A DNA stretch of 64,000 bases, from UHGV virus genome UHGV-1374396; one strand, written 5' to 3'. The notes beneath the pieces are model-generated. The model saw only the letters and a list, made by a program, of their open reading frames with translations. It had not been told where the DNA came from and did not search any database. Each line of letters starts with the position of its first letter. Position 1 is the stretch's first letter. The translations under genes were made by a program, and so were the position numbers. Below are positions 3,444-64,000 of the stretch, piece by piece. Source of the DNA: a virus.

Positions 3444-3682
3444 CTCTTCTTGTATATTAAACTTTTTAGATATAGTTCTAATTTATTCTTATCGTTACTG
3501 AGTTGTTGTAACTTATCTAGCATATCATCCTCTAAAACTCTTTTAGTTACTGTATGTAATTTAAGGCTTTGTGATATATTCTGTGTTACAAAAGAGAACC
3601 TCATCTGTGTAACAAATCCTGTATTAGTAACGGTATAGATAATAGGTACTCCATTAATCTCTATTTGAGTTGGTTTAGCCAT
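3440..3682 (-). CDS. hypothetical protein (80 aa)
   Basis: ORF with start/stop overlap to both neighbours (operon-like packing). Confidence 0.4.
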   Translation of the reverse strand: MAKPTQIEINGVPIIYTVTNTGFVTQMRFSFVTQNISQSLKLHTVTKRVLEDDMLDKLQQLSNDKNKLELYLKSLIYKKR

Positions 3683-4305
3683 TATTCGTATGATATAGAT
3701 TTTAGTTGTTGCATAAATATTTTCACAGAAGTCTGTAGGTTGTTTCTCCAGTATTCTGGAATCTCATCTAGTGGACTACCTTCTCCTGGTATATATGCTA
3801 GCATTATAGCTCCGATAGCATCTAACATCTTATGATGAGGTGATACATGTCTTTCCCAATCTGGTAATCGTTGTTGGATTAGAGCATTCATGTCTCTGTT
3901 GTATTGCTTAGCAACTTGTATCATCATTATCGCTGTTAGAGCATTGTTGATTACCTCTAAGTATTCCTGAGATTCATATACCTTGAGTAGAGCATTGTTC
4001 ATTGTGTAGAAGAGTTGAGTAAGGTGTATGTTCATTAGTCCTCTCCACTCTTCTGATTTAACCTTGATGTAATCGATGTTCTTTTGGTCTAGATTTAGAC
4101 GTAGTTCATAGTACCAGTTAGCTTTGATATCGTTAAGCCTACGGCTTAGTTTGATGGTATCTGGTACTCTGTGATCTCTACACCAAGATTGAACCTTGTC
4201 TGAATAATATAGTACTGTATCGATTATCATGTTAGGTGTAAAACATATACGCATGTGTTCATCAAACGTAAATGAATCTAACATACTCTTTAAGTCTTTG
4301 TTCAT
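3682..4305 (-). CDS. hypothetical protein (207 aa)
   Basis: Long ORF in minus-strand train; no motif recognised. Confidence 0.5.
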   Translation of the reverse strand: MNKDLKSMLDSFTFDEHMRICFTPNMIIDTVLYYSDKVQSWCRDHRVPDTIKLSRRLNDIKANWYYELRLNLDQKNIDYIKVKSEEWRGLMNIHLTQLFYTMNNALLKVYESQEYLEVINNALTAIMMIQVAKQYNRDMNALIQQRLPDWERHVSPHHKMLDAIGAIMLAYIPGEGSPLDEIPEYWRNNLQTSVKIFMQQLKSISYE

Positions 4306-4308
4306 AGT

Positions 4309-4380
4309 CTATTTATTTGGGTTATTTAGTAGTGTTATTATACCTAACACTAATGTTATAAATATTAATACGTAGTGCAT
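4309..4380 (-). CDS. tiny hydrophobic peptide (23 aa, MHYVLIFITLVLGIITLLNNPNK)
   Basis: Manual translation; one predicted TM helix; member of a tandem run of four tiny ORFs. Could be AT-richness artefact. Confidence 0.2.
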   Translation of the reverse strand: MHYVLIFITLVLGIITLLNNPNK

Positions 4381-4392
4381 TATACACATAAT

Positions 4393-4527
4393 CTAATCCT
4401 CCTTATCTTTAGAGATACTATCTATGTATCCCTTGAATGCTAAAAATAAAATCAATGTACCCATTAAAGCCATTAACCCTAAGAGTACATATATTAAAGT
4501 TAATTCTAACGAAGTTGGTTGTTCCAT
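4393..4527 (-). CDS. tiny membrane peptide (44 aa, MEQPTSLELTLIYVLLGLMALMGTLILFLAFKGYIDSISKDKED)
   Basis: Manual translation; single TM helix with a charged C-terminus. Confidence 0.3.
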   Translation of the reverse strand: MEQPTSLELTLIYVLLGLMALMGTLILFLAFKGYIDSISKDKED

Positions 4528-4530
4528 ATC

Positions 4531-4614
4531 TTATCTATTAGAGTCGTCAATAATAATGATAAATAGTACAATGAATATAAGTGTTATTAGTAAACATAGT
4601 AATACAGGTCCCAT
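4531..4614 (-). CDS. tiny membrane peptide (27 aa, MGPVLLCLLITLIFIVLFIIIIDDSNR)
   Basis: Manual translation; the ATG lies 2 nt after the stop of the upstream tiny ORF. Confidence 0.25.
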   Translation of the reverse strand: MGPVLLCLLITLIFIVLFIIIIDDSNR

Positions 4615-4616
4615 AG

Positions 4617-4733
4617 TTAATCCTTTCTTTTATAAATATCTCTTAATGTGCAAAATACTAATAAGCTAATCATTAAGCTTATGGTACCCATGAAACCGTA
4701 GACTAGTACGTAATCTAATGTTGTTGCTTTCAT
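4617..4733 (-). CDS. tiny membrane peptide (38 aa, MKATTLDYVLVYGFMGTISLMISLLVFCTLRDIYKRKD)
   Basis: Manual translation; single TM helix plus a basic tail. Confidence 0.3.
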   Translation of the reverse strand: MKATTLDYVLVYGFMGTISLMISLLVFCTLRDIYKRKD

Positions 4734-4932
4734 ATTTATTTAATTTAATGTTTATATATTCCTATAGAAATGAAAAGAACTACTTGAGTAGAGATTGTTA
4801 CTCTATTCTTGTAGTCCTTAATATTTAACGTTATTGCTTAGTGCCTTATGCCTTGGCTTTAGCGATTAGCCCTTAGCCTTACTTATTTATCTCCTACGGA
4901 AATAAATATGTAATCATTTAGTCATCAAGAAT

Positions 4933-9900: not shown

Positions 9901-10045
9901 ATATGTTTCGTTGTTTATATTTCTATAGTATATATAGTTATATAATAGATCACCAATATCTACACTACTATAGTACTACTAGTAGATTCCTCAGCTTCTT
10001 GGTGAATATTTCTATCAAATATTTTGTAGAATTAAAAATAATAAT

Positions 10046-10053
10046 TATATTTG
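10046..10053 (+). promoter_or_regulatory. Bacteroidota-type -7 box TATATTTG upstream of the plus-strand gene at 10080
   Basis: TAnnTTTG match 26 nt before the ATG. Confidence 0.45.
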
Positions 10054-10079
10054 CAATATCAAATTAAATAAGAATAGTT

Positions 10080-10730
10080 ATGATAGAATCAGAAAAGAAC
10101 GGGTCAGAATTACACAGACTAAGACCTATGCAAGAAGGTTATGACGAAAACCTATTTAGGGAATTATACAAGGTTTGCCAACCTATAATAAGAAACTTAG
10201 TTCGTCAGATTGATTGTAAAAGATTTAACTTATCGCCAGATATTATAAAATCTCAATTCGATGATAAGTTATTATTTGTATTTAATAAATACTACGGGTC
10301 AGTTAGCAAAGACCAGTTAAAGTATACTATAATAAGAGCTTTAACTACTTATAAACTACACCTATTAAAATATGCTTATTCAGATAAGGCAAGTTTTTAT
10401 CAACACCAAGTATCACTTGATACTTTATTCGATAATGATAAAGAGTTATTTGATGATTCTGAAGAACAGATTAAGAAAGAGAATTTAATTAAAGAAGTAG
10501 ATAAGTATATGGAAGAACACTTATCTATGGATGCTTATCTAGTATGGGAAGCATTAAACCACCAGCCACCCTATATACGTAAAAGATTACACGGTGAAAG
10601 AGTTACTAACAGATTACTTGCAGAATTCTTCGATTTACCTAAGTCACGTAATTCAGTTAAGTATATTTCTAAACTAAGAGATGAAGTTCATCATTGGATG
10701 AAACAAGCTTCGAAAGATATAAAGTTATAA
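10080..10730 (+). CDS. hypothetical protein; possible divergent sigma-70-family/ECF-like transcription factor
   Basis: Plus-strand ORF with its own promoter-like box and a downstream terminator. N-terminal ENLFRELYKVCQPIIRNLVRQ resembles sigma region 2. C-terminal LLAEFFDLPKSRNSVKYISKLRDEV resembles a region-4 HTH. Similarity judged by eye only. Confidence 0.5.
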   Translation: MIESEKNGSELHRLRPMQEGYDENLFRELYKVCQPIIRNLVRQIDCKRFNLSPDIIKSQFDDKLLFVFNKYYGSVSKDQLKYTIIRALTTYKLHLLKYAYSDKASFYQHQVSLDTLFDNDKELFDDSEEQIKKENLIKEVDKYMEEHLSMDAYLVWEALNHQPPYIRKRLHGERVTNRLLAEFFDLPKSRNSVKYISKLRDEVHHWMKQASKDIKL

Positions 10731-46292: not shown

Positions 46293-46455
46293 ATACTATA
46301 ATTTTATGTTAATTAATATGTAGAATACAAGGGAGTATTGCTATAAGGCCTGTCTGTTACAGATTTATAGGTAATATTTTCAACGCATTTAGTTAATAAA
46401 CTGTTAAATAGGCTTACAGTAAAGCTACCTCAAGCCGGAGAAAGGTATTTCAAGA

Positions 46456-46487
46456 TTTGCATAATTAAAAAAATATTAGTATATTTG
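46456..46487 (+). promoter_or_regulatory. Bacteroidota-type promoter: TTTG (46456-46459), 20 bp, TATATTTG (46480-46487)
   Basis: Consensus TTTG/TAnnTTTG with canonical spacing, 35 nt upstream of the ATG at 46523. Confidence 0.55.
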
Positions 46488-46522
46488 CAATATAAAATAA
46501 AACAATAATAATTTTATAATTT

Positions 46523-46924
46523 ATGGAGAAAATAAAACTAACAAGTAGAGATCAAGTACTATTCTACGATGGTAAATCAATCATTGAATTAGTATCAGTA
46601 AAGAGTTTAATCAAGGACAGTGATGAAATACTGCTTTCCAATGGGGTTAAAATAAAGATGGAATCCAATAAAACTGGTGATTTCAGAAGAACCGATTATA
46701 AGAGAACTGAATTTAGAAAAGAAGGTTATCTTGGTTTCATTAGAAAATACGAAGAAGGTTCAACTGATAAATACCATCAGTTTTATAATGCTATCTTAGC
46801 TAAGATAGGGTTAAAGGTAAAGCTTAATAAGATAATGAATTTATTAACTTCAACTCCAAATGAGCTTATATTAGATACAGAAAGCCAGGAATATTTAATC
46901 AAACTTAATAAAAAGATAAAGTAA
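46523..46924 (+). CDS. hypothetical protein (133 aa), first gene of plus-strand accessory cassette
   Basis: ORF with promoter match upstream. Confidence 0.5.
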   Translation: MEKIKLTSRDQVLFYDGKSIIELVSVKSLIKDSDEILLSNGVKIKMESNKTGDFRRTDYKRTEFRKEGYLGFIRKYEEGSTDKYHQFYNAILAKIGLKVKLNKIMNLLTSTPNELILDTESQEYLIKLNKKIK

Positions 46925-48979: not shown

Positions 48980-49390
48980 TTATTTGCTTTCTAATTCTTT
49001 TTTACAGAGGTTCAAAGCATTTGATAAAATTTCTTTTTTCTCTGTTTTTAAATTTTCATTGCAAACGCTATTTAATGAATAATCATTAATTAAATAACAT
49101 TCTTTGTAAAAATCATTAAACGCTTTAATAAGTGCTTTTTGATTTTCTTTGTTCTTCTCATTTAAAAGAGAAGAAGCACACGAAAATAACATATTTCTTA
49201 ACTTCTTTCTTAAAGATTTTTTTTCTTTTTCGTTGCAATCTAAAAAAATCTCATCTTTATAAATAGATGCTTTTTTCGTTCCTAATGAAGTTTTAAGAAG
49301 TCCTTTTGTGTTATTTGCAAAATTTTCAATAATTGATTTTGCATTAACTACTTGCTTTGCACTCTCTAAATTTACATTTTGTTTTTTCAT
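48980..49390 (-). CDS. hypothetical protein (136 aa, Lys/Glu-rich)
   Basis: ORF with two consensus promoters upstream. Confidence 0.5.
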   Translation of the reverse strand: MKKQNVNLESAKQVVNAKSIIENFANNTKGLLKTSLGTKKASIYKDEIFLDCNEKEKKSLRKKLRNMLFSCASSLLNEKNKENQKALIKAFNDFYKECYLINDYSLNSVCNENLKTEKKEILSNALNLCKKELESK

Positions 49391-49502
49391 TTTTGTTATA
49401 GCTCTTTTTTCATTTTATTATTACTATTATTTAAGTTCTTCAAGGAGTGAAAAAAAGCTACTTAAAAATAACCCCCTTTCTAAACTTTTATTATTTACAT
49501 TG

Positions 49503-49534
49503 CAAAGTTACGAATAATATTTTAAACCTGCAAA
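49503..49534 (-). promoter_or_regulatory. Bacteroidota-type promoter (minus strand TAACTTTG at 49503-49510; -33 TTTG at 49531-49534)
   Basis: Reverse complement of plus CAAAGTTA and CAAA, 20-bp spacer. Confidence 0.5.
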
Positions 49535-49597
49535 TTTTTTCAATGTTTTTTTTTTAAATATTTTTTTGATTGAATTATTATTTTTATTTTGACAATG

Positions 49598-49628
49598 CAA
49601 AGTTATGAATAATTTTTTAATCTACAAA
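49598..49628 (-). promoter_or_regulatory. second tandem Bacteroidota-type promoter (TAACTTTG at 49598-49605; TTTG at 49625-49628)
   Basis: Same motif, 19-bp spacer; the flanking ~40 bp nearly duplicate the first copy. Confidence 0.45.
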
Positions 49629-49984
49629 GAAAAATCTAATTTTTTTTTGAGATTAATTTTTATAAACATAAATAATAAAAATTCTAAAAAGAATTATTTT
49701 TTAATACAAAAAATTTGGTTATATAAAATATTTGTATTATTTGCGTGCGTACATATATAATATATAAGAGTTCAAAAATTTGTATATTTGCATTATTAAA
49801 TTTTAATAATGCAAAATTTTGGGGCCTATAAGTTGTGTAGGCGGCCGCGTTGTTGTGTAGCCCCTATACTACTTTTCTAAAGGTACTCCAGGGGCCATAG
49901 ACAGTATATTGATATACATTAGGAATAGGCCAATAAGGCCCAGCCAACATTTTTGTTCTCCAGTAAACCGTGAATGGCCGGGAA

Positions 49985-50310
49985 CTATAATAGGGCCTTG
50001 AAAAGAACTTGGTAAGCCCAGAGGGCCCTGGATGGTTGCCTATTCGCTTCATTGTTGTGAAATTGGTAAGCGAAATTCGTTAGGCCTAGTGGATATGAAA
50101 TCGGAAACGCCTATTGCATATTGTAGCGTTACACGGAAAGGCCCGGATGGTTAGTTAAGCTTATTCAAAATCAGTAGGGCCTTGAAGACATAAGGCAAGT
50201 CACGGAAGAGATCAAATACATTAGTGGCCATTCAGGGTTATCTAAAAGGACCTCGAGGTAGAGAAATCGGAAATGTGTAAGTGATTTTGTAGCGTATATA
50301 CACAGAGAAA
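49985..50310. repeat. imperfect tandem duplication of a ~165-bp unit (each begins TAGGGCCTTGAA and contains GAAATCGGAAA...TTGTAGCGT...ACAC.GA.AAAGCC.GG)
   Basis: Aligned by eye; GC content far above the genome background. Confidence 0.55.
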
Positions 50311-50358: not shown

Positions 50359-50874
50359 TTATTGTTGATCCTGAGGGAATTTAGAAAGGATTTCCTGGAT
50401 AGTGTTTTGTTCAGAGATTATTTGAGTAAAGTCTGGGTCGCAGAATTCGCATTGATCCTGGAGTAGTTCGTCCTGATCCTCTTTTTGTTTATCGTAGTTG
50501 ATAATGTATTGTTTTACTGGATTGATATCGATTGGGTCTTTGCCTTCGCAGTTATAGTTGTAGCAGAAGGCAATATGTTGCATTTGGTTAAATAGGTCTG
50601 GAATGTAATCGTAGAAATCGTCGTCTCCGATGAAACCGCTTTGTAGAATTTCGGTTAATTGTTTTAGGAGTTCATCGAAGGCAATTCGAGCTTCTTTGAT
50701 ATTAACCGAGTAGATGATTTGGATTCCGTTATCCATGAGTTCATCGAATAGTTCTGGGTTGGAATCTTCCAGTTCGAAGGCTTCGTAAATCCTTGTGATG
50801 TTAGTTGGGAGGTATTCTCCTGTTGTACTTGGGATAAGGAATTCGTTGGTGTTTAAGAAATTTAATTTGTTCAT
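50359..50874 (-). CDS. highly acidic hypothetical protein (171 aa), isolated between two long noncoding regions
   Basis: Roughly a quarter of residues are D/E; own promoter (50921-50952) and own terminator. Confidence 0.55.
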   Translation of the reverse strand: MNKLNFLNTNEFLIPSTTGEYLPTNITRIYEAFELEDSNPELFDELMDNGIQIIYSVNIKEARIAFDELLKQLTEILQSGFIGDDDFYDYIPDLFNQMQHIAFCYNYNCEGKDPIDINPVKQYIINYDKQKEDQDELLQDQCEFCDPDFTQIISEQNTIQEILSKFPQDQQ

Positions 50875-50920
50875 AATGACTATAAAATTTAATTATTAAT
50901 ATTGATTTATTATTACAATG

Positions 50921-50952
50921 CAAAGATACGAATAATATTTTTATTCTACAAA
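50921..50952 (-). promoter_or_regulatory. Bacteroidota-type promoter (TATCTTTG at 50921-50928; TTTG at 50949-50952)
   Basis: 20-bp spacer; about 47 nt upstream of the ATG at 50874. Confidence 0.5.
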
Positions 50953-51410
50953 TATTTTTCTAATAAAATTATTAGTGGCTGGAGATCTTAGATATAGTCA
51001 AACTGATAAGTATGAACATAAGTATCAAATTATAGGTAGTTTTCGATTAATTCTAGAGCTCTAGTATAAGTTAAGTAATATATTTATATGTTTGATTATA
51101 GGAATAATTCTTGATATAGGTAAAACTTGGGGCCATGAACGGTATCCTTGAAATCGAAAATGTGATTAAATTTACACGTACACATACGCCTTGTTGTGTA
51201 AACCTTAAAGCCCAAAGGCAAGGCCCAAATCGTAATCCTTAATCCTAAAAGGCCTAACCCCAAACACAAATAATACATAATATAAACATATCGAATAGTG
51301 TAACCTATATACATATCTAGTAATATATAATACATATACGAATATTCTTATCAATACTGAAACAACTATATTCTAGTTGTGGCCATGTACTGTAACGCAG
51401 TTAGCGAATT

Positions 51411-51421: not shown

Positions 51422-51463
51422 GCGAATCTCAAATCACCTAATCTCCTTGCCCCAAACAAACCA

Positions 51464-51655
51464 ATATATATATATATATATAATATAAACTAATACGATT
51501 AGGCTCTAGGCAATACGATTAGAGATTACGATTTAAAGTTCTACTCTACTAGCTTAGCTACTACTAGCTACTCTACACACAACGAATAATATATTCAAAT
51601 CGAATCACCTAAATCGAAAGCCTAGACCATTCTATTATATATATATATATTATAA
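51464..51655. repeat. two (TA)8-10 microsatellite tracts (about 51464-51484 and 51636-51654), each preceded by an AATCACCTAA element
   Basis: Seen directly. Confidence 0.6.
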
Positions 51656-53883: not shown

Positions 53884-54210
53884 TTATTTTACGTTAAAGT
53901 AGTTAGGGTCTTGGACTAATTTTACCTCTCTTGCAGTTGATAAATATTCGGAACCGGCATCAGTTTCTAATATTGGAGCATCTTCTCCTACTCCTAAGGA
54001 ATCTAGTAGAGTTTCTGTAGCCTTCATGTAAGCTTCGTATTTATGAAGGTTTTCTTGAGCCTTGTTGTAATACTTTTTGTAACAGTAGAGAGAATCTCTT
54101 GATGATTTTAGCATCTGATATAATTCGGATTCTGTTGTTTTACTGTTTGAGCATCCTGTTGTTAGTGTTCCTAAGAGGATGGCCGATAAGATAAATTTTA
54201 ATTTTTTCAT
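53884..54210 (-). CDS. putative lipoprotein (108 aa)
   Basis: Signal peptide MKKLKFILSAILLGTLTTGC with lipobox-like Cys; own promoter. Confidence 0.5.
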   Translation of the reverse strand: MKKLKFILSAILLGTLTTGCSNSKTTESELYQMLKSSRDSLYCYKKYYNKAQENLHKYEAYMKATETLLDSLGVGEDAPILETDAGSEYLSTAREVKLVQDPNYFNVK

Positions 54211-54247
54211 TTTGACTATAATTTAATTATTAATATTATTTACATTG

Positions 54248-54255
54248 CAAATTTA
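54248..54255 (-). promoter_or_regulatory. -7 box TAAATTTG (minus strand) with weak -33 element, upstream of the lipoprotein gene
   Basis: TAnnTTTG match 38 nt before the ATG. Confidence 0.4.
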
Positions 54256-54324
54256 ATCATTTTCTTTTAATTATGCAATGAACCTCGAATACAAGTTGTA
54301 ATACTTCTAGAGCTTCTAGAGAGG

Positions 54325-54761: not shown

Positions 54762-55259
54762 TTATTGCTTTGTTAATTCTTTAATCTCTAGCATAATGCT
54801 TTTACAGGTTTGTCTGAAACCTCTTGAGGATTTTATCCATTCGTCATAGTAGATATGTCTATTACTACCTTTGATGTTCTTATACTTTGCCATTAGTCTA
54901 GCATCAAATATGAGGTCAGTGTCGGTAGTTGCTATGGCTATCATTAAAGCTTGTACCTTAGAGAGTTCATCGTCGTAAGGATCTTCTGATAGTTCTAGTT
55001 CTGAGATATTATGTTCTATGTAACTAAGAGCCTGTTTCATTGATTTGAATATAAGTATCCTCTTAGGACTTAGCAAGAATTCCAGATCTTCATATTCTGT
55101 TGATAGTTTGGACCTTACTTTCGAATGAACTGGTATTATGTGTTCTACAAATTTCTGGCCAGCCCAATTAGTTATGGTAGTACCTTCTTCCTCTATTGTG
55201 AAGTACTTATTAGAAGATATTACTTCTATGTATTCTTTAATTGTTTTAATTTTTTCCAT
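54762..55259 (-). CDS. hypothetical protein (165 aa)
   Basis: ORF. Confidence 0.45.
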   Translation of the reverse strand: MEKIKTIKEYIEVISSNKYFTIEEEGTTITNWAGQKFVEHIIPVHSKVRSKLSTEYEDLEFLLSPKRILIFKSMKQALSYIEHNISELELSEDPYDDELSKVQALMIAIATTDTDLIFDARLMAKYKNIKGSNRHIYYDEWIKSSRGFRQTCKSIMLEIKELTKQ

Positions 55260-55935
55260 ATCTATTTACCGTTATGTTGTTAGCTTCAATATTAGCATAC
55301 ATTGCTTCTACATATTTAACTAATCTCCTATATTCTTGCCCTTTGATTTTACTTTCTCCCTTGGCTTTTGCTATTAGTTCTTCTCCTGTACCGTAGAAGC
55401 ATCCAACCTTCCACATCTTATTTGAACGTGTATAAGTGATATACCTTCCACTAGACCAATAATTCTTACATATGTAGTAATCCTCTGTTACAGCTAATAT
55501 AGCATCTCCACCAATTTCTGCCCAATCATCTATGATAGTATCACCCTCTATTATAGAGTTACCATGTACTAAGGAATGCCCTTGTACAATACAGTAATCA
55601 CCAAGTTGAGAATTATCAGTTACACTAGCATTCTCTCCTATATTGCAGTAATCACGTATTTTAGAATTCCCTCGTATTCGGCAATTATCATAAGCCTTAA
55701 CTTCATTGTATAGTTTAGCATCCATAGATACTCTAGCATTATCATAAGCCATAGAGTAATCATATAACCAGCAAGTATATAGGTGACTAAGATTATATTC
55801 TCCTTCTACATAACCTCCGAGGTCACCTTTCTTTACATCATCGAAATCTTTTAAAGCCTCAATCCTATATAACTTTTTACCGTGGTAGTATATATAGAGG
55901 TCTTCTCTTAGTTTATATTTCTTTTTAAGCATCAT
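55246..55935 (-). CDS. beta-helix-like repeat protein (229 aa)
   Basis: Degenerate repeats YDNARVSMDAKL / YDNCRIRGNSKI / DYCNIGENASV / DNSQLGDYCIVQGHSLVHGNSIIEGDTII. Confidence 0.45.
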   Translation of the reverse strand: MMLKKKYKLREDLYIYYHGKKLYRIEALKDFDDVKKGDLGGYVEGEYNLSHLYTCWLYDYSMAYDNARVSMDAKLYNEVKAYDNCRIRGNSKIRDYCNIGENASVTDNSQLGDYCIVQGHSLVHGNSIIEGDTIIDDWAEIGGDAILAVTEDYYICKNYWSSGRYITYTRSNKMWKVGCFYGTGEELIAKAKGESKIKGQEYRRLVKYVEAMYANIEANNITVNRYGKN

Positions 55936-55940
55936 AATAT

Positions 55941-56378
55941 TTAATCAATTCTAAAACTAACTTCTATTGTACCTCTATCTTCTTTGATTGATATAAGTGT
56001 TACTTCAGTAACATCATGTTCTGCTATAAGTTCTTTAATTGAACTTGGAATTTCCCAGGGCATTTCTACCCAAGTAAAGTTGACTTGTATTAGTCCATCT
56101 GGTCTACCCAAGTAGTCTATACTTTGTAATTGTAAGTAAGTCCTGATAGTTTTATGGTTATCATATATATAACCAAGTAGTAAACCAATTGAATCAGCTA
56201 TTGGTGATAGAAGATCTTCTTCAATAGCAACTTCTGGTTCTATCTCCTCTAAAGGCCTATCCAATAGCATTAAGTGATTTAATACGTCCTCATCAACGTT
56301 AATTGAGAAGTTAGGAGTAACTCTGAATCCTTGTAGAGTTTCAGGTTCTTTGATGTAATTTAAAACGTTCTTTTTCAT
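55941..56378 (-). CDS. hypothetical protein (145 aa)
   Basis: ORF with own promoter. Confidence 0.45.
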   Translation of the reverse strand: MKKNVLNYIKEPETLQGFRVTPNFSINVDEDVLNHLMLLDRPLEEIEPEVAIEEDLLSPIADSIGLLLGYIYDNHKTIRTYLQLQSIDYLGRPDGLIQVNFTWVEMPWEIPSSIKELIAEHDVTEVTLISIKEDRGTIEVSFRID

Positions 56379-56414
56379 TTTGACTATAATTTAATTATTA
56401 ATATTTTTACAATG

Positions 56415-56446
56415 CAAATTTAATACTTTTATTTTAATTATGCAAA
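56415..56446 (-). promoter_or_regulatory. Bacteroidota-type promoter (TAAATTTG at 56415-56422; TTTG at 56443-56446)
   Basis: 20-bp spacer. Confidence 0.5.
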
Positions 56447-56628
56447 TCCAGAAATACCTTTCTGATGACACGAAAAGAGCTAGCAAGAGTGGGTCCTGCT
56501 AGCTCCATAATAAATGTTACCTAAAAGCATCTTGTACCTTAATGAACACCTATTACATAAACCTTAAACAAAGTAGTACATTAACATATAGTCATACCCT
56601 ATTAGGTTTAGTGTAATACTCTAGAGAA

Positions 56629-58198: not shown

Positions 58199-58582
58199 TT
58201 ATTTTCTCTTTGAGGGGTATTTAATAAATTCTAAGGGTTTGTCATCGGATATTATTTGGAATAGATAACCTCTATGATTATCTTCATAGTAACTTTCCCA
58301 CATTACGTAGGGTAATTTATAGGGTTCTAGTGTATCTCTTTTAGGAATACCTGTAACTACTAATTTAACTAGATTAAGTTTTTCTAGACCTTCAGGAGTT
58401 AGGTTAATTATCCCTTTATGATAACTGCCGAATATTACCAAGTCAGGTTGATATTTGGTTTTCTTTATTAAGGGTAAACCTATATCACCCATTAGTGTTT
58501 GAGGTGATATTACCTTCCCATCTTTTATGAGAGTAAGTTTACTTTTTCCGATGTATTGATTTTTTACGATATGTGCGAACAT
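58199..58582 (-). CDS. hypothetical protein (127 aa)
   Basis: ORF. Confidence 0.4.
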   Translation of the reverse strand: MFAHIVKNQYIGKSKLTLIKDGKVISPQTLMGDIGLPLIKKTKYQPDLVIFGSYHKGIINLTPEGLEKLNLVKLVVTGIPKRDTLEPYKLPYVMWESYYEDNHRGYLFQIISDDKPLEFIKYPSKRK

Positions 58583-58838
58583 TTGGTATGGCTCCTTTAT
58601 AAAACAGTGATTTTAAATCATCCTTTACTAACTTTTGAACGAATAACCATATAGGTATATTCCAATAATGATTAATATTCTTCTCAGATACTGATAGGGA
58701 GTATAGTTTGAAGAATTTTATACGAGTACTGTATTTAACTCCCCTTGAGACTAAGTATGATTTAATACACCTTTCATGTAATTGTTTAAGTTCGAGAAGG
58801 TGTTTAAGGTAAACCTTCTCTGGTAATCCAGGTAACAT
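58539..58838 (-). CDS. hypothetical protein (99 aa)
   Basis: ORF. Confidence 0.35.
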   Translation of the reverse strand: MLPGLPEKVYLKHLLELKQLHERCIKSYLVSRGVKYSTRIKFFKLYSLSVSEKNINHYWNIPIWLFVQKLVKDDLKSLFYKGAIPNVRTYRKKSIHRKK

Positions 58839-58902
58839 TGACTAAATTTAGTATTTGAATATAAAGGGCTCTGTTATTTATGAGCCCTTTATAGATTATG
58901 AA

Positions 58903-59352
58903 CTATGCTGATTTTGCATCTTGAAAAACTTCTGAGCAGTAATCTTTGTAAGCTTTTAAAGCCTTCTTGAATTCCTTAGAACTTTGGTCTTCAATTCTTG
59001 CCTTTGCAAGTTCTAATTGGCGAAGCTTACTTCTAACTTTTTGTCTCCAAGTTTTTCTTGAAAGAGAATCTGTTACATCCTCTGGGTATTTATATTTTAC
59101 TACCCTTTCTTTTGCAACCTTCTCTACTATTTCTACTGCTTGTTGTAAAGCCAACTTCTTAGTAAGTTTATCTTCTTTAGAGGTCTTAACTTTAATCTTT
59201 ACCTCCTTCTTATCTTTTACTTCATCTAGAGGTTTTTGATTCTTAGCCTTGGTTTCCTTCTTCTTATCTTTAGAAACCTTTGCCTTGTTTTCTACTGAAG
59301 GGTTAGTTACCTTGTTTGAACTCTCTACCTTGTTTAATTTTGCTTTTTTCAT
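58903..59352 (-). CDS. highly basic Lys-rich protein (149 aa), DNA-binding candidate
   Basis: KKETKAKNQKPLDEVKDKKEVKIKVKTSKEDK composition; own promoter. Confidence 0.5.
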   Translation of the reverse strand: MKKAKLNKVESSNKVTNPSVENKAKVSKDKKKETKAKNQKPLDEVKDKKEVKIKVKTSKEDKLTKKLALQQAVEIVEKVAKERVVKYKYPEDVTDSLSRKTWRQKVRSKLRQLELAKARIEDQSSKEFKKALKAYKDYCSEVFQDAKSA

Positions 59353-59402
59353 TTTGACTATAATTTAAATTAATGATTTATTATTTATTTAGTTTGATAA
59401 TG

Positions 59403-59434
59403 CAAAATTACAAATAATATTTTTATAATGCAAA
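59403..59434 (-). promoter_or_regulatory. Bacteroidota-type promoter (TAATTTTG at 59403-59410; TTTG at 59431-59434)
   Basis: 20-bp spacer. Confidence 0.5.
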
Positions 59435-59490
59435 TATTTTAATAAAAAATTCAATAATAGCTGTGGAACAAGTAGTAGCTATAGTAAGAG

Positions 59491-63296: not shown

Positions 63297-63695
63297 TTAG
63301 TCTTCAGCTTCTTCCTCTTCCTCATCATCTTCTTCGTCATTTGAACCTCTACCAGGTTTTTGACCTCCGATTACTCCGTGACCTTTCTTTGCCTTGATAG
63401 TAAGTTCTCCTGGAATGAATGAGTTAGATACTGAAACTACCTCTCCTGCGTTGTTATATGCAACGGTAGTAGTGTAGATTCCTACTGAACGACCCTTAAC
63501 CTTTACTACGTAACCGTAAGTTTCAACCTTACCAGTTTCTGTAACAATTACATCGAATTGTTTTGAGTTACAACGTTGGCCTGCTGGGCGGTTCTTAAGA
63601 GCTTCCATACGTGCTTTTCTCTTTGCTGCCTTTTCTTCAGCAGACATCTTTGTTTTGTTCTCCTTCTTAACAGGAGCAGCTTTCTTTGTTGCCAT
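63297..63695 (-). CDS. protein with basic N-terminal region and poly-acidic C-terminal tail (132 aa)
   Basis: MATKKAAPVKKENKTK...AAKRKARMEALK at the N-terminus; GSNDEEDDEEEEEAED at the C-terminus. Confidence 0.5.
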   Translation of the reverse strand: MATKKAAPVKKENKTKMSAEEKAAKRKARMEALKNRPAGQRCNSKQFDVIVTETGKVETYGYVVKVKGRSVGIYTTTVAYNNAGEVVSVSNSFIPGELTIKAKKGHGVIGGQKPGRGSNDEEDDEEEEEAED

Positions 63696-63767: not shown

Positions 63768-64000
63768 TTACTTCTTACCCTTTTTAGTTGTTTTCTTAGG
63801 AAGTTTGATACCTAATTCCTTTGCAACTGCAGCACGGAGTTTTTCTACTTCGTCCTCATCAAAGTCATCTGGGTCTGTATCCAAATTCTTGTCGTCGCAG
63901 ATATCTTCCAATTCTTCAAAGTCAGCACCTGCAAGAACTTCTGGAGTTACTTCGTCTTCCTCTTCGTCGTCTTCGTCGTCTTCCTCTTCGTCTTCCTCTT
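63768..64000 (-). CDS. partial CDS (3' end only) of a protein with a long poly-D/E region
   Basis: Manual translation of the minus strand ends ...PKKTTKKGKK-stop at 63768-63770. Upstream codons give EEDEEDDEDDEEEDEV...; start lies beyond the window. Confidence 0.4.
   Translation of the reverse strand, partial: EEDEEEDDEDDEEEDEVTPEVLAGADFEELEDICDDKNLDTDPDDFDEDEVEKLRAAVAKELGIKLPKKTTKKGKK

Follow-up and report, generated by a model that had tools for sequence, protein, structure and literature searches.

Introduction

In T4-type phages, the cassettes known as PeSLs (promoter-early stem-loops) are conserved intergenic modules of ~100 bp that carry a consensus host early promoter and are repeated in the hyperplastic regions of the genome (Arbiol et al. 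2010, PMC2839356; Comeau et al. 2014, PMC4122927). The ORFans that they flank vary from one close relative to another, and the modules serve as patches of homology for gene insertion, deletion, and replacement (PMC2839356; PMC4122927), and the recombination crossovers were mapped between the -10 box and the ATG (PMC2839356). Here we describe a related arrangement in a stretch of 64,000 nucleotides (nt) of the virus genome UHGV-1374396 (the window), in which four minus-strand genes are each headed by a copy of a promoter-leader cassette. By analogy, these cassettes are best read as counterparts of the T4-type PeSL that carry a new element in the translation-initiation region, a short box with the core TAGWC placed just ahead of the start codon.

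Promoters recognized by the Bacteroidota housekeeping sigma factor have nearly invariant T-12, A-11, T-8, T-7, T-6, and G-5 and a TTTG at -33 (PMC6847099). Translation initiation in Bacteroidetes does without a Shine-Dalgarno (SD) sequence; adenines at -3, -6, -12, and -13 and low structure are favored, and G/C is given no role (Baez et al. 2019, PMC6847099).

The promoter and ribosome-binding site (RBS) modules of Bacteroides phages are exceptionally strong, the native P_rpoD and P_rRNA reaching only about 20% of P_BfP1E6, and a Bacteroides phage RBS is in use as an engineering part. The P_BfP1E6/RBSphage parts come from Bacteroides fragilis phages and reportedly go back to Whitaker et al. 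2017.

Results

Four Copies of a Promoter-Leader Cassette

The minus-strand open reading frames (ORFs) starting at 50874, 54210, 56378, and 59352 were confirmed (Table 1) and, as the preliminary description of this DNA had stated, nearly the same sequence precedes each of them. In all four cases a Bacteroidota-type promoter (-33 TTTGCA / -7 TAnnTTTGCA) is followed by a leader of 36-50 nt with an A+T content of about 90%, whose end reads TTAAAT(T)TATAGTCA-WW-ATG. A module of roughly 100 bases, made up of the promoter, the A/T-rich leader, and a TAGTC box, is repeated at four early gene blocks. The -7 element TAnnTTTG (TAHHTTTG) is matched by every copy; the -33 element lies 19-20 nt upstream of the -7 box, where copies 2 and 3 have TTTGCA, copy 4 has TTTGTA, and copy 1 has ATTGCA, with one mismatch. 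With transcription start sites (TSS) predicted ~5 nt after the G of the -7 element, the 5' untranslated regions (UTRs) would measure about 33-46 nt.

Chance does not account for the repeat. The 29-mer ATATTAATAATTAAATTATAGTCAAAATG is found exactly at 54208-54236 and 56376-56404 (0 expected by chance), and the 19-mer TTAAATTATAGTCAAAATG is present at three cassette sites when 0.22 were expected, a count of three being reached in 0/100 shuffles; the copy at 50874 has the same sequence with a 2-nt insertion and ATT instead of AAA before the ATG. When the leaders were taken without the promoters, from the end of the -7 box up to the base ahead of the ATG, and aligned in pairs against 500 composition-preserving shuffles, all six pairs scored 19.5-32 versus 11-13 +/- 2 for the shuffles (z about 3.6-10). 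The similarity therefore extends past the promoter boxes and is not due to the base composition. A profile hidden Markov model (HMM) of the cassette retrieved exactly four full-length copies over the whole window, with E values of 4e-14 to 2e-12, and four further promoters that match the promoter half only; eight such promoters are present in the window altogether. The pattern TAGWCWWWATG has just four matches in the window, every one at a cassette start.

A conserved leader of ~35 nt had been proposed. The similarity is real in all four copies, but near-identity over about 35 nt is limited to two of them, and the stretch that is common to all four copies and to the related phages is the start-proximal box of roughly 17 nt.

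Table 1: Cassettes, promoters, and boxes located in the window.
Feature	Position	Strand	Elements and remarks
Cassette copy 1, full length	54200..54294	-	Heads 53884..54210 (lipoprotein-like N-terminus); nhmmer E 1.2e-13
Copy 1 promoter	54279-54274; 54255-54248	-	-33-like ATTGCA; -7 box TAAATTTG
Copy 1 leader	54243-54211	-	Predicted TSS near 54243, placed from the G at -5 of the -7 element (PMC6847099)
Copy 1 start-proximal box	54212..54226	-	TTAAATTATAGTCAA; TAGTC 54218-54214; ATG 54210-54208
Cassette copy 2	56367..56457	-	Heads 55941..56378; E 4.3e-14
Copy 2 promoter	56446-56441; 56422-56415	-	-33 TTTGCA; -7 box TAAATTTG; predicted TSS near 56410
Copy 2 box	56394-56380	-	TTAAATTATAGTCAA; ATG 56378-56376
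Strong terminator hairpin ahead of copy 2	56506-56476	-	-23 kcal/mol, z -3.1
Cassette copy 3	59341..59446	-	Heads 58903..59352; longer 50-nt leader; E 2.5e-13
Copy 3 promoter	59434-59429; 59410-59403	-	-33 TTTGCA; -7 box TAATTTTG
Copy 3 box	59368-59354	-	TTAAATTATAGTCAA; ATG 59352-59350
Cassette copy 4	50865..50962	-	Heads 50359..50874; E 2.3e-12
Copy 4 promoter	50952-50947; 50928-50921	-	-33-like TTTGTA; -7 box TATCTTTG
Copy 4 box	50892-50876	-	TTAAATTTTATAGTCAT, 2-nt insertion; TAGTC 50882-50878; ATG 50874-50872
Promoter-less box instance	58839..58889	-	Box 58849-58839; ATG 58838; ends ...TACTAAATTTAGTCA-ATG, TTAAATTTAGTCA-ATG
Promoter-only relative	49487..49540	-	-7 box TAACTTTG starts 49510; model positions 9-62 only; no TAGWC box
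Promoter-only relative	49579..49628	-	-7 box starts 49605; tandem with 49510 promoter
Promoter-only relative	46444..46505	+	-7 at 46480; heads 46523..46924; leader ends ...TTTTATAATTT-ATG; no TAGWC box
Promoter-only relative	10011..10072	+	-7 at 10046; heads 10080..10730; leader ends GAATAGTT-ATG

The leaders are not folded. Their minimum free energies are -0.5 to -1.4 kcal/mol with z > 0, and 137-193 of 200 shuffles folded equally well or better. Rfam gave nothing at E <= 1 in the neighboring region and nothing at the gathering score across the whole window. Only copy 2 (-7 at 56422) has a significant hairpin upstream; the other three upstream regions fold no better than shuffles. No GGAG, GAGG, or AGGA was found in the four leaders. 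As in the described Bacteroidetes initiation context (PMC6847099), the cassettes are open, A-rich around the start, and devoid of an SD sequence, with A at -3 in 4/4 copies, where it is the trailing A of the box, and A at -12/-13 in 3/4, where it comes from the A-run of the box; position -6 is a G in 4/4.

The TAGWC Box in Related Phages

Related phages were fetched with the 132-aa protein encoded at 63297-63695, which gave 113 tblastn-confirmed IMG/VR stretches, the best 80 of which were kept as loci. These 80 loci share 48-100% identity in the marker protein and mostly come from gut-phage contigs of 75-88 kb. In them, a TAGTC or TAGAC very often closes the leader behind a host-type promoter, a few bases ahead of the ATG and after a TTTAAA-like run (e.g., ...aaattaTAGTCaaaATG, ...ttttaaaaTAGACaacaacATG, and ...aaaatttTAGACttATG). 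A TAG[AT]C no more than 14 nt from the ATG was found at 57/106 promoter-proximal starts versus 72/1420 others, and after dereplication at 30/75 (40%) versus 25/761 (3%). Most of the 72 other starts likewise follow a promoter, of which the -33 is imperfect. GTCAA alone is 46-fold enriched after dereplication. Motifs of the GGAG/GAGG/AGGA type show the reverse distribution, being present at 4/106 promoter-proximal starts versus 145/1420 others. Exact-pattern scans of IMG/VR and metagenomes mostly returned chance single matches, with the exception of an 81-kb IMG/VR relative (loci L001, L038, L039, L119, and L127; 94-96% nucleotide identity to the window across the early region) and three further relatives.

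A position matrix anchored on TAG in 38 dereplicated cassettes reads a-W-T-T-W-A-A-W-W-W-T-A-G-W-C-A-A, which gives the box consensus TTWAA-N3-TAGWC-AA. Since TAGTC and TAGAC coexist within single genomes (e.g., L053), the W represents genuine degeneracy. Box and ATG are 2-6 nt apart, whereas the -7 box is mostly 15-48 nt away without any phasing, and the surrounding leader contains just 4% G and 4.7% C. A spacing that is fixed to the ATG and variable to the promoter ties the box to the start codon rather than to the promoter. Among relatives the box is kept while the remaining leader changes in sequence and length, and this family-wide conservation next to a diverging leader argues for a function at the translation-initiation region. 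The repeat is real, nonrandom, and functionally constrained.

The box is also found once in the window without a recognizable promoter, ahead of the gene 58539..58838 (Table 1). It follows a hairpin (~58889-58864, minus strand) located between this gene and the gene 58903..59352. The combination of hairpin and box is kept in L040, L041, and L044, where the stem sequences differ by compensatory changes. The hairpin at 58864-58889, which has a weak U-tract after it, may be an attenuator, which would set off an immediate-early first gene from the genes that follow it in the 59352 operon.

The box does not extend to the late genes or to two other phages of Bacteroidota type. The capsid and other late genes have no box upstream, and neither do most internal early genes; the box is also missing from the DP phage described below, a more distant phage with the same promoter type, and from the cultured B. 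fragilis phage B124-14. Given this absence from late genes and other phages, and a pentamer that is not enriched in the window, the box is neither a general Bacteroides RBS nor a genome-wide DNA signal, but a feature of early leaders that is specific to class and lineage. In L047, L049, and L052, which represent a sister lineage and share the promoter type, the leaders end in AAAAAGGAT-ATG or AAAAAGGT-ATG and have an SD-like purine box where the window has TAGTC. In the window, the leader of the gene 10080..10730 contains a TAGTT variant that directly abuts the ATG and is kept in relatives. The tandem minus-strand promoters at 49487-49628 are 95 nt apart and have a differing leader of >110 nt to the gene 48980..49390, unlike the short cassette leaders.

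Gene Swapping behind the Cassettes

Comparison with relatives that are ~78% identical in the flanking genes revealed islands of nucleotide homology over the cassettes that end at the base before the ATG. With L044, these islands cover the window from 54384 to 54211 (82% identical) and from 56632 to 56379 (71% identical). At the protein level, the first genes behind these cassettes (56378 and 54210) are missing or only 34-55% identical in relatives, when the neighboring genes are 70-90% identical; L042-L044 and L048 either lack these two genes or have others in their place. The 57573 gene has an orthologue that is about 88% identical in L040, L041, L044, L126, and L128 and 49-55% identical in L043 and L048. 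Downstream of this orthologue, the same cassette is followed by first genes of at least five families that are unrelated to one another (one in the window, L038, L040, and L041; one in L044; one in L126 and L128; one in L043; and one in L048). The first genes of L126 and L128 behind the equivalent cassette are 53% identical to each other and differ from the first gene of the window. The conserved second gene, at 55246-55935 (minus strand), encodes a hexapeptide-repeat (LbH) protein (Pfam Hexapep; PHROG 7964).

The cassette copies also exchange sequence with one another. The leader of the 56378 gene is identical to that of the 54210 gene in the window and carries a 59352-type segment, ATTAATTTAAATTATAG, in the 95%-identical L038, which indicates gene conversion between copies. 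Five or six cassette copies are present in the 81-kb relative, and a duplicated cassette plus gene was found in L044. At L038:15027 (IMGVR_UViG_3300045988_079865, contig about 79468), a fifth TAGTC cassette stands with a paralogue of the 50874 gene, and the window lacks both; this indicates duplication or deletion of a cassette-plus-gene unit. The recombination or module shuffling at a common cassette that had been suggested for this DNA is supported by islands that end at the ATG, swapped first genes, and converted leaders, but is not proven as a mechanism.

Other Features of the Window

Domain scans of the window identified an HK97-type major head protein, portal, protease, large terminase, and tail fibre genes, together with DnaB-like and other helicases and an NAD-dependent ligase. 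The phage is an uncultured HK97-capsid tailed phage. A putative Bacteroides host, as first proposed, fits the -33/-7 promoter type. No tRNA was found in the window, and a megablast search among deposited phages found no close relative. The nearest deposited record is the uncultured human-gut "Phage DP SC_6_H4_2017" (MT121964), with 62% amino-acid identity in the capsid protein; this record bears just two annotated genes. From 46 to 64 kb, small minus-strand ORFs follow one another almost without database annotation, which is typical of an early or hyperplastic region.

The 132-aa marker protein (63297-63695, minus strand) has a lysine-rich N-terminus and a poly-Asp/Glu tail (…NDEEDDEEEEEAED), and its 113 IMG/VR stretches include contigs of about 170 kb. 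The ORF ahead of it (63770-64000, minus strand) is likewise extremely acidic. No match in Pfam or PHROG was found, and the 132-aa protein may be a DNA-mimic or nucleic-acid-binding early protein.

Between 49400 and 52420 lies an ORF-poor stretch of ~3 kb, with a locally inverted GC skew (positive at 48-54 kb) and 25% GC at 48-50 kb. Within it are three copies of GAAATCGGAAAcGcCTA.. (50072-50295), scattered ATCGAAA/ACGATTAG repeats, and a long imperfect palindrome centered on (TA)n (51463-51651). This stretch, which has no Rfam match, may be a replication origin or a noncoding RNA region. At 49783-49870 on the plus strand, a host-type promoter (TATATTTGCA) directed into the ORF-poor region precedes the GC-rich hairpin ggggcctataagttgtgtaggcggccgcgttgttgtgtagcccc, after which there is no ORF; the 81-kb relative conserves this arrangement, which may correspond to a small RNA.

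A hydrophobic ORF of 26 codons (MCIMHYVLIFITLVLGIITLLNNPNK) at 4309-4389 (minus strand), just upstream of the gene 3682..4305, is missing at that place in the 98%-identical L119 and is a small-membrane-protein indel in a cluster of similar mini-ORFs (4300-4760). The TAGAC-ATG at 4305 was not retained as a box, because its TAG is the stop codon of this inserted ORF.

Discussion

Comparison with Described Cassettes

The four cassettes share with PeSLs a repeated arrangement, a host-type promoter, variable ORFans behind it, breakpoints at the cassette, and exchange between copies. They differ in three ways: the promoter is of the Bacteroidota -33/-7 type and not sigma-70, three of the four copies fail the stem-loop criterion, and the most conserved part is the start-proximal leader box, which lies outside the PeSL definition. 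Since the shared traits come with a mostly absent stem-loop and an added box, we treat the cassettes as working like PeSLs without being PeSLs.

A second comparison is offered by B124-14 (L124, NC_016770), in which five promoters (37961, 24515, 6398, 4186, and 2829, minus strand) share the TSS-proximal leader TCAAAAGGAAACAAATTACTAACA. As in the window, several separately promoted genes of one phage have a common promoter and leader. However, the shared segment of B124-14 is TSS-proximal, has another sequence, and contains no TAGWC, and only two of its leaders end in TTAGAATT-ATG. Reiterated promoter-leader modules are a recurrent habit of Bacteroides phages. The cassette itself is a phage feature of an ordinary type, here in a new host phylum. 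What is new, family-wide, and mechanistically unexplained is the TAGWC box, in a phylum whose signals for translation initiation are poorly understood.

How the Box Could Act

We consider that the box probably acts in cis, at the level of the mRNA and of translation initiation, within the promoter-leader expression cassette. Each site would be a copy of a reiterated early-gene expression cassette, whose Bacteroidota-type promoter would be read by the host RNA polymerase straight after infection. The unfolded, ~90% A+T 5' UTR would keep the ribosome-binding region open, as SD-less Bacteroidota mRNAs require, and the start-anchored box would work in cis on the translation-initiation region of the first cistron, its invariant G and C most likely being recognized in a sequence-specific manner. 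Because ~100 bp of near-identical DNA is repeated in one orientation, the copies would recombine, homogenizing one another and serving as joints for the swapping of promoter-proximal genes between phages.

Two roles could be given to the box. Its restriction to the early class, its absence from late genes, and the other motifs of other Bacteroides phages point to a reader beyond the general rules of the ribosome, and its location inside the 30S footprint is the position that a translational operator or an inactivating RNase site would need. In T4, the RegA operators and RegB sites are short motifs in the ribosome-binding region of many unrelated early mRNAs and provide a class-wide post-transcriptional shut-off; RegB cuts GGAG, and the RegA sites are AU-rich around the AUG. 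The box has no sequence similarity to these sites, and the likeness is one of logic only. By that analogy it is possible, though short of probable, that a class-specific repressor or RNase uses the box on early mRNAs as its operator or cleavage site. No RegA or RegB homologue was detected in the scanned early proteins, which leaves room for a novel protein. A non-SD ribosome-docking determinant is kept in view by the SD-like AAGGAT at the box position in L047, and we regard this role as doubtful. We only tentatively propose that the box is a new SD-independent translation-control signal of a large family of gut Bacteroidota phages, whether for ribosome docking or as an operator or cleavage site for early-operon shut-off.

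Several observations weigh against a cis-acting role in translation initiation. Only 40-54% of the promoter-proximal starts in the family carry the box, and sister lineages have other short G/C-containing sequences (AAGGAT, ATAAC) at its position. The highly expressed late genes manage without it, as do other early genes located after intergenic gaps. The TAGWC core falls outside the described initiation rules (PMC6847099), which give G/C no positive role and prefer A over the G that every cassette has at -6. Across the window the counts of TAGTC, TAGAC, and their complements are close to expectation, the pentamer being neither enriched nor avoided, and domain scans of about 30 early proteins (Pfam, PHROG) gave no informative match for a trans-acting reader. 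Finally, the sequence comparisons show directly the anatomy, the enrichment, the anchoring to the ATG, the lack of structure, the mosaic breakpoints, and the conversion; the TSS positions, the early timing, the action on RNA, and the identity of the reader we infer from the DNA sequence.

If the box were instead a DNA operator in the initially transcribed region, a bound phage or host protein could block or license elongation from all early promoters at once and so act as an early shut-off switch. Operators common to several early promoters are frequent in phages, the box is found only downstream of host-type promoters of one temporal class, and short palindromes are present in its A/T part (copies 1 and 2, ATAATT-A-AATTAT; copy 3, TAATTTAAATTA). 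Such a roadblock needs no start codon, however, whereas the distance of the box to the ATG is held and its distance to the promoter varies without helical phasing; moreover, the asymmetric TAGWC core always has the sense orientation, one conserved box follows a hairpin with no recognizable promoter, and no helix-turn-helix or other DNA-binding domain was detected among the scanned early proteins. We find this explanation unlikely. Tandem early and middle promoters are known in T4, and the box with its TTWAA upstream part does look like a compact promoter, so that it could be read as a second, phage-specific (middle-class) element producing transcripts with very short leaders; the box located after a terminator-like hairpin would fit as well. 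This is very improbable, as the box is unlike TAnnTTTG, the scan of ~40 ORFs (for the most part those of the early region, plus the large replication and head genes) detected neither a phage RNA polymerase nor a sigma factor, the hairpin and the ATG at 58838 are only about 25 nt apart, and transcripts starting 2-6 nt from the ATG would be almost leaderless, when Bacteroidota transcripts are reported to be mostly leadered (PMC6847099).

The likeness of the leaders could also have no dedicated function behind it and reflect recent duplication and gene conversion, any open A/T-rich leader being sufficient. Conversion and duplication are clear in the leader swap between the window and L038, the extra cassette and paralogue of L038, and the duplicated cassette and gene of L044, and no TAGWC box precedes the genes behind the plus-strand promoters at 10046 and 46480. 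Homogenization within a genome nevertheless fails to explain a 17-nt box shared by phages whose marker proteins are ~50% identical and whose leaders are otherwise unalignable and of altered length, and an invariant G and C in a leader of ~4% G/C give a chance expectation of <1% per start versus the 40% observed; we judge the absence of function quite unlikely. Conserved leaders on unrelated genes are typical of structured cis-regulatory RNAs, and a riboswitch, a thermometer, or an antisense target might be imagined, but the absent folding and the lack of an Rfam match contradict this, and no other copy or complement of the box that could belong to an antisense or small RNA partner was found elsewhere in the window. 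A structured RNA is extremely improbable. The shared translational or regulatory RNA element of the preliminary description is supported as an enriched and conserved start-anchored box, not as a structured RNA, and is not proven as a mechanism.

Other candidate readings were rejected. An opposite-strand sigma-70 promoter (TTGACT-16-TATTAT, 54212-54239) was judged a by-product of the box and leader, the host promoter type not being sigma-70 (PMC6847099); in addition, the reverse complement of the box in relatives of TAGAC type would, as read from the sequence, give TTGTCT and not TTGACT. A role as in-frame stop codon was discarded since the TAG occurs in all three frames relative to the ATG, a methylation, restriction, or avoidance motif because of the about expected genome-wide frequency of TAGTC/TAGAC, and a general strong RBS because the late genes lack the box.

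Conclusions

The combination of a host-type promoter and a TAGWC box gives a simple signature for annotating early transcription units in uncultured gut phages. As the genes right behind the cassettes are hypervariable, they are probably host-takeover or anti-defence genes. The cassettes extend to Bacteroidota phages the idea, drawn from PeSLs, of regulatory cassettes that double as recombination joints and drive mosaicism. Bacteroides phage promoter/RBS modules are already the strongest expression parts available for the engineering of Bacteroides, and the cassettes are new candidate parts. In Bacteroidota, which do not use SD-guided initiation, a sequence-specific box in the ribosome-binding region would offer a handle on what guides or controls translation initiation.

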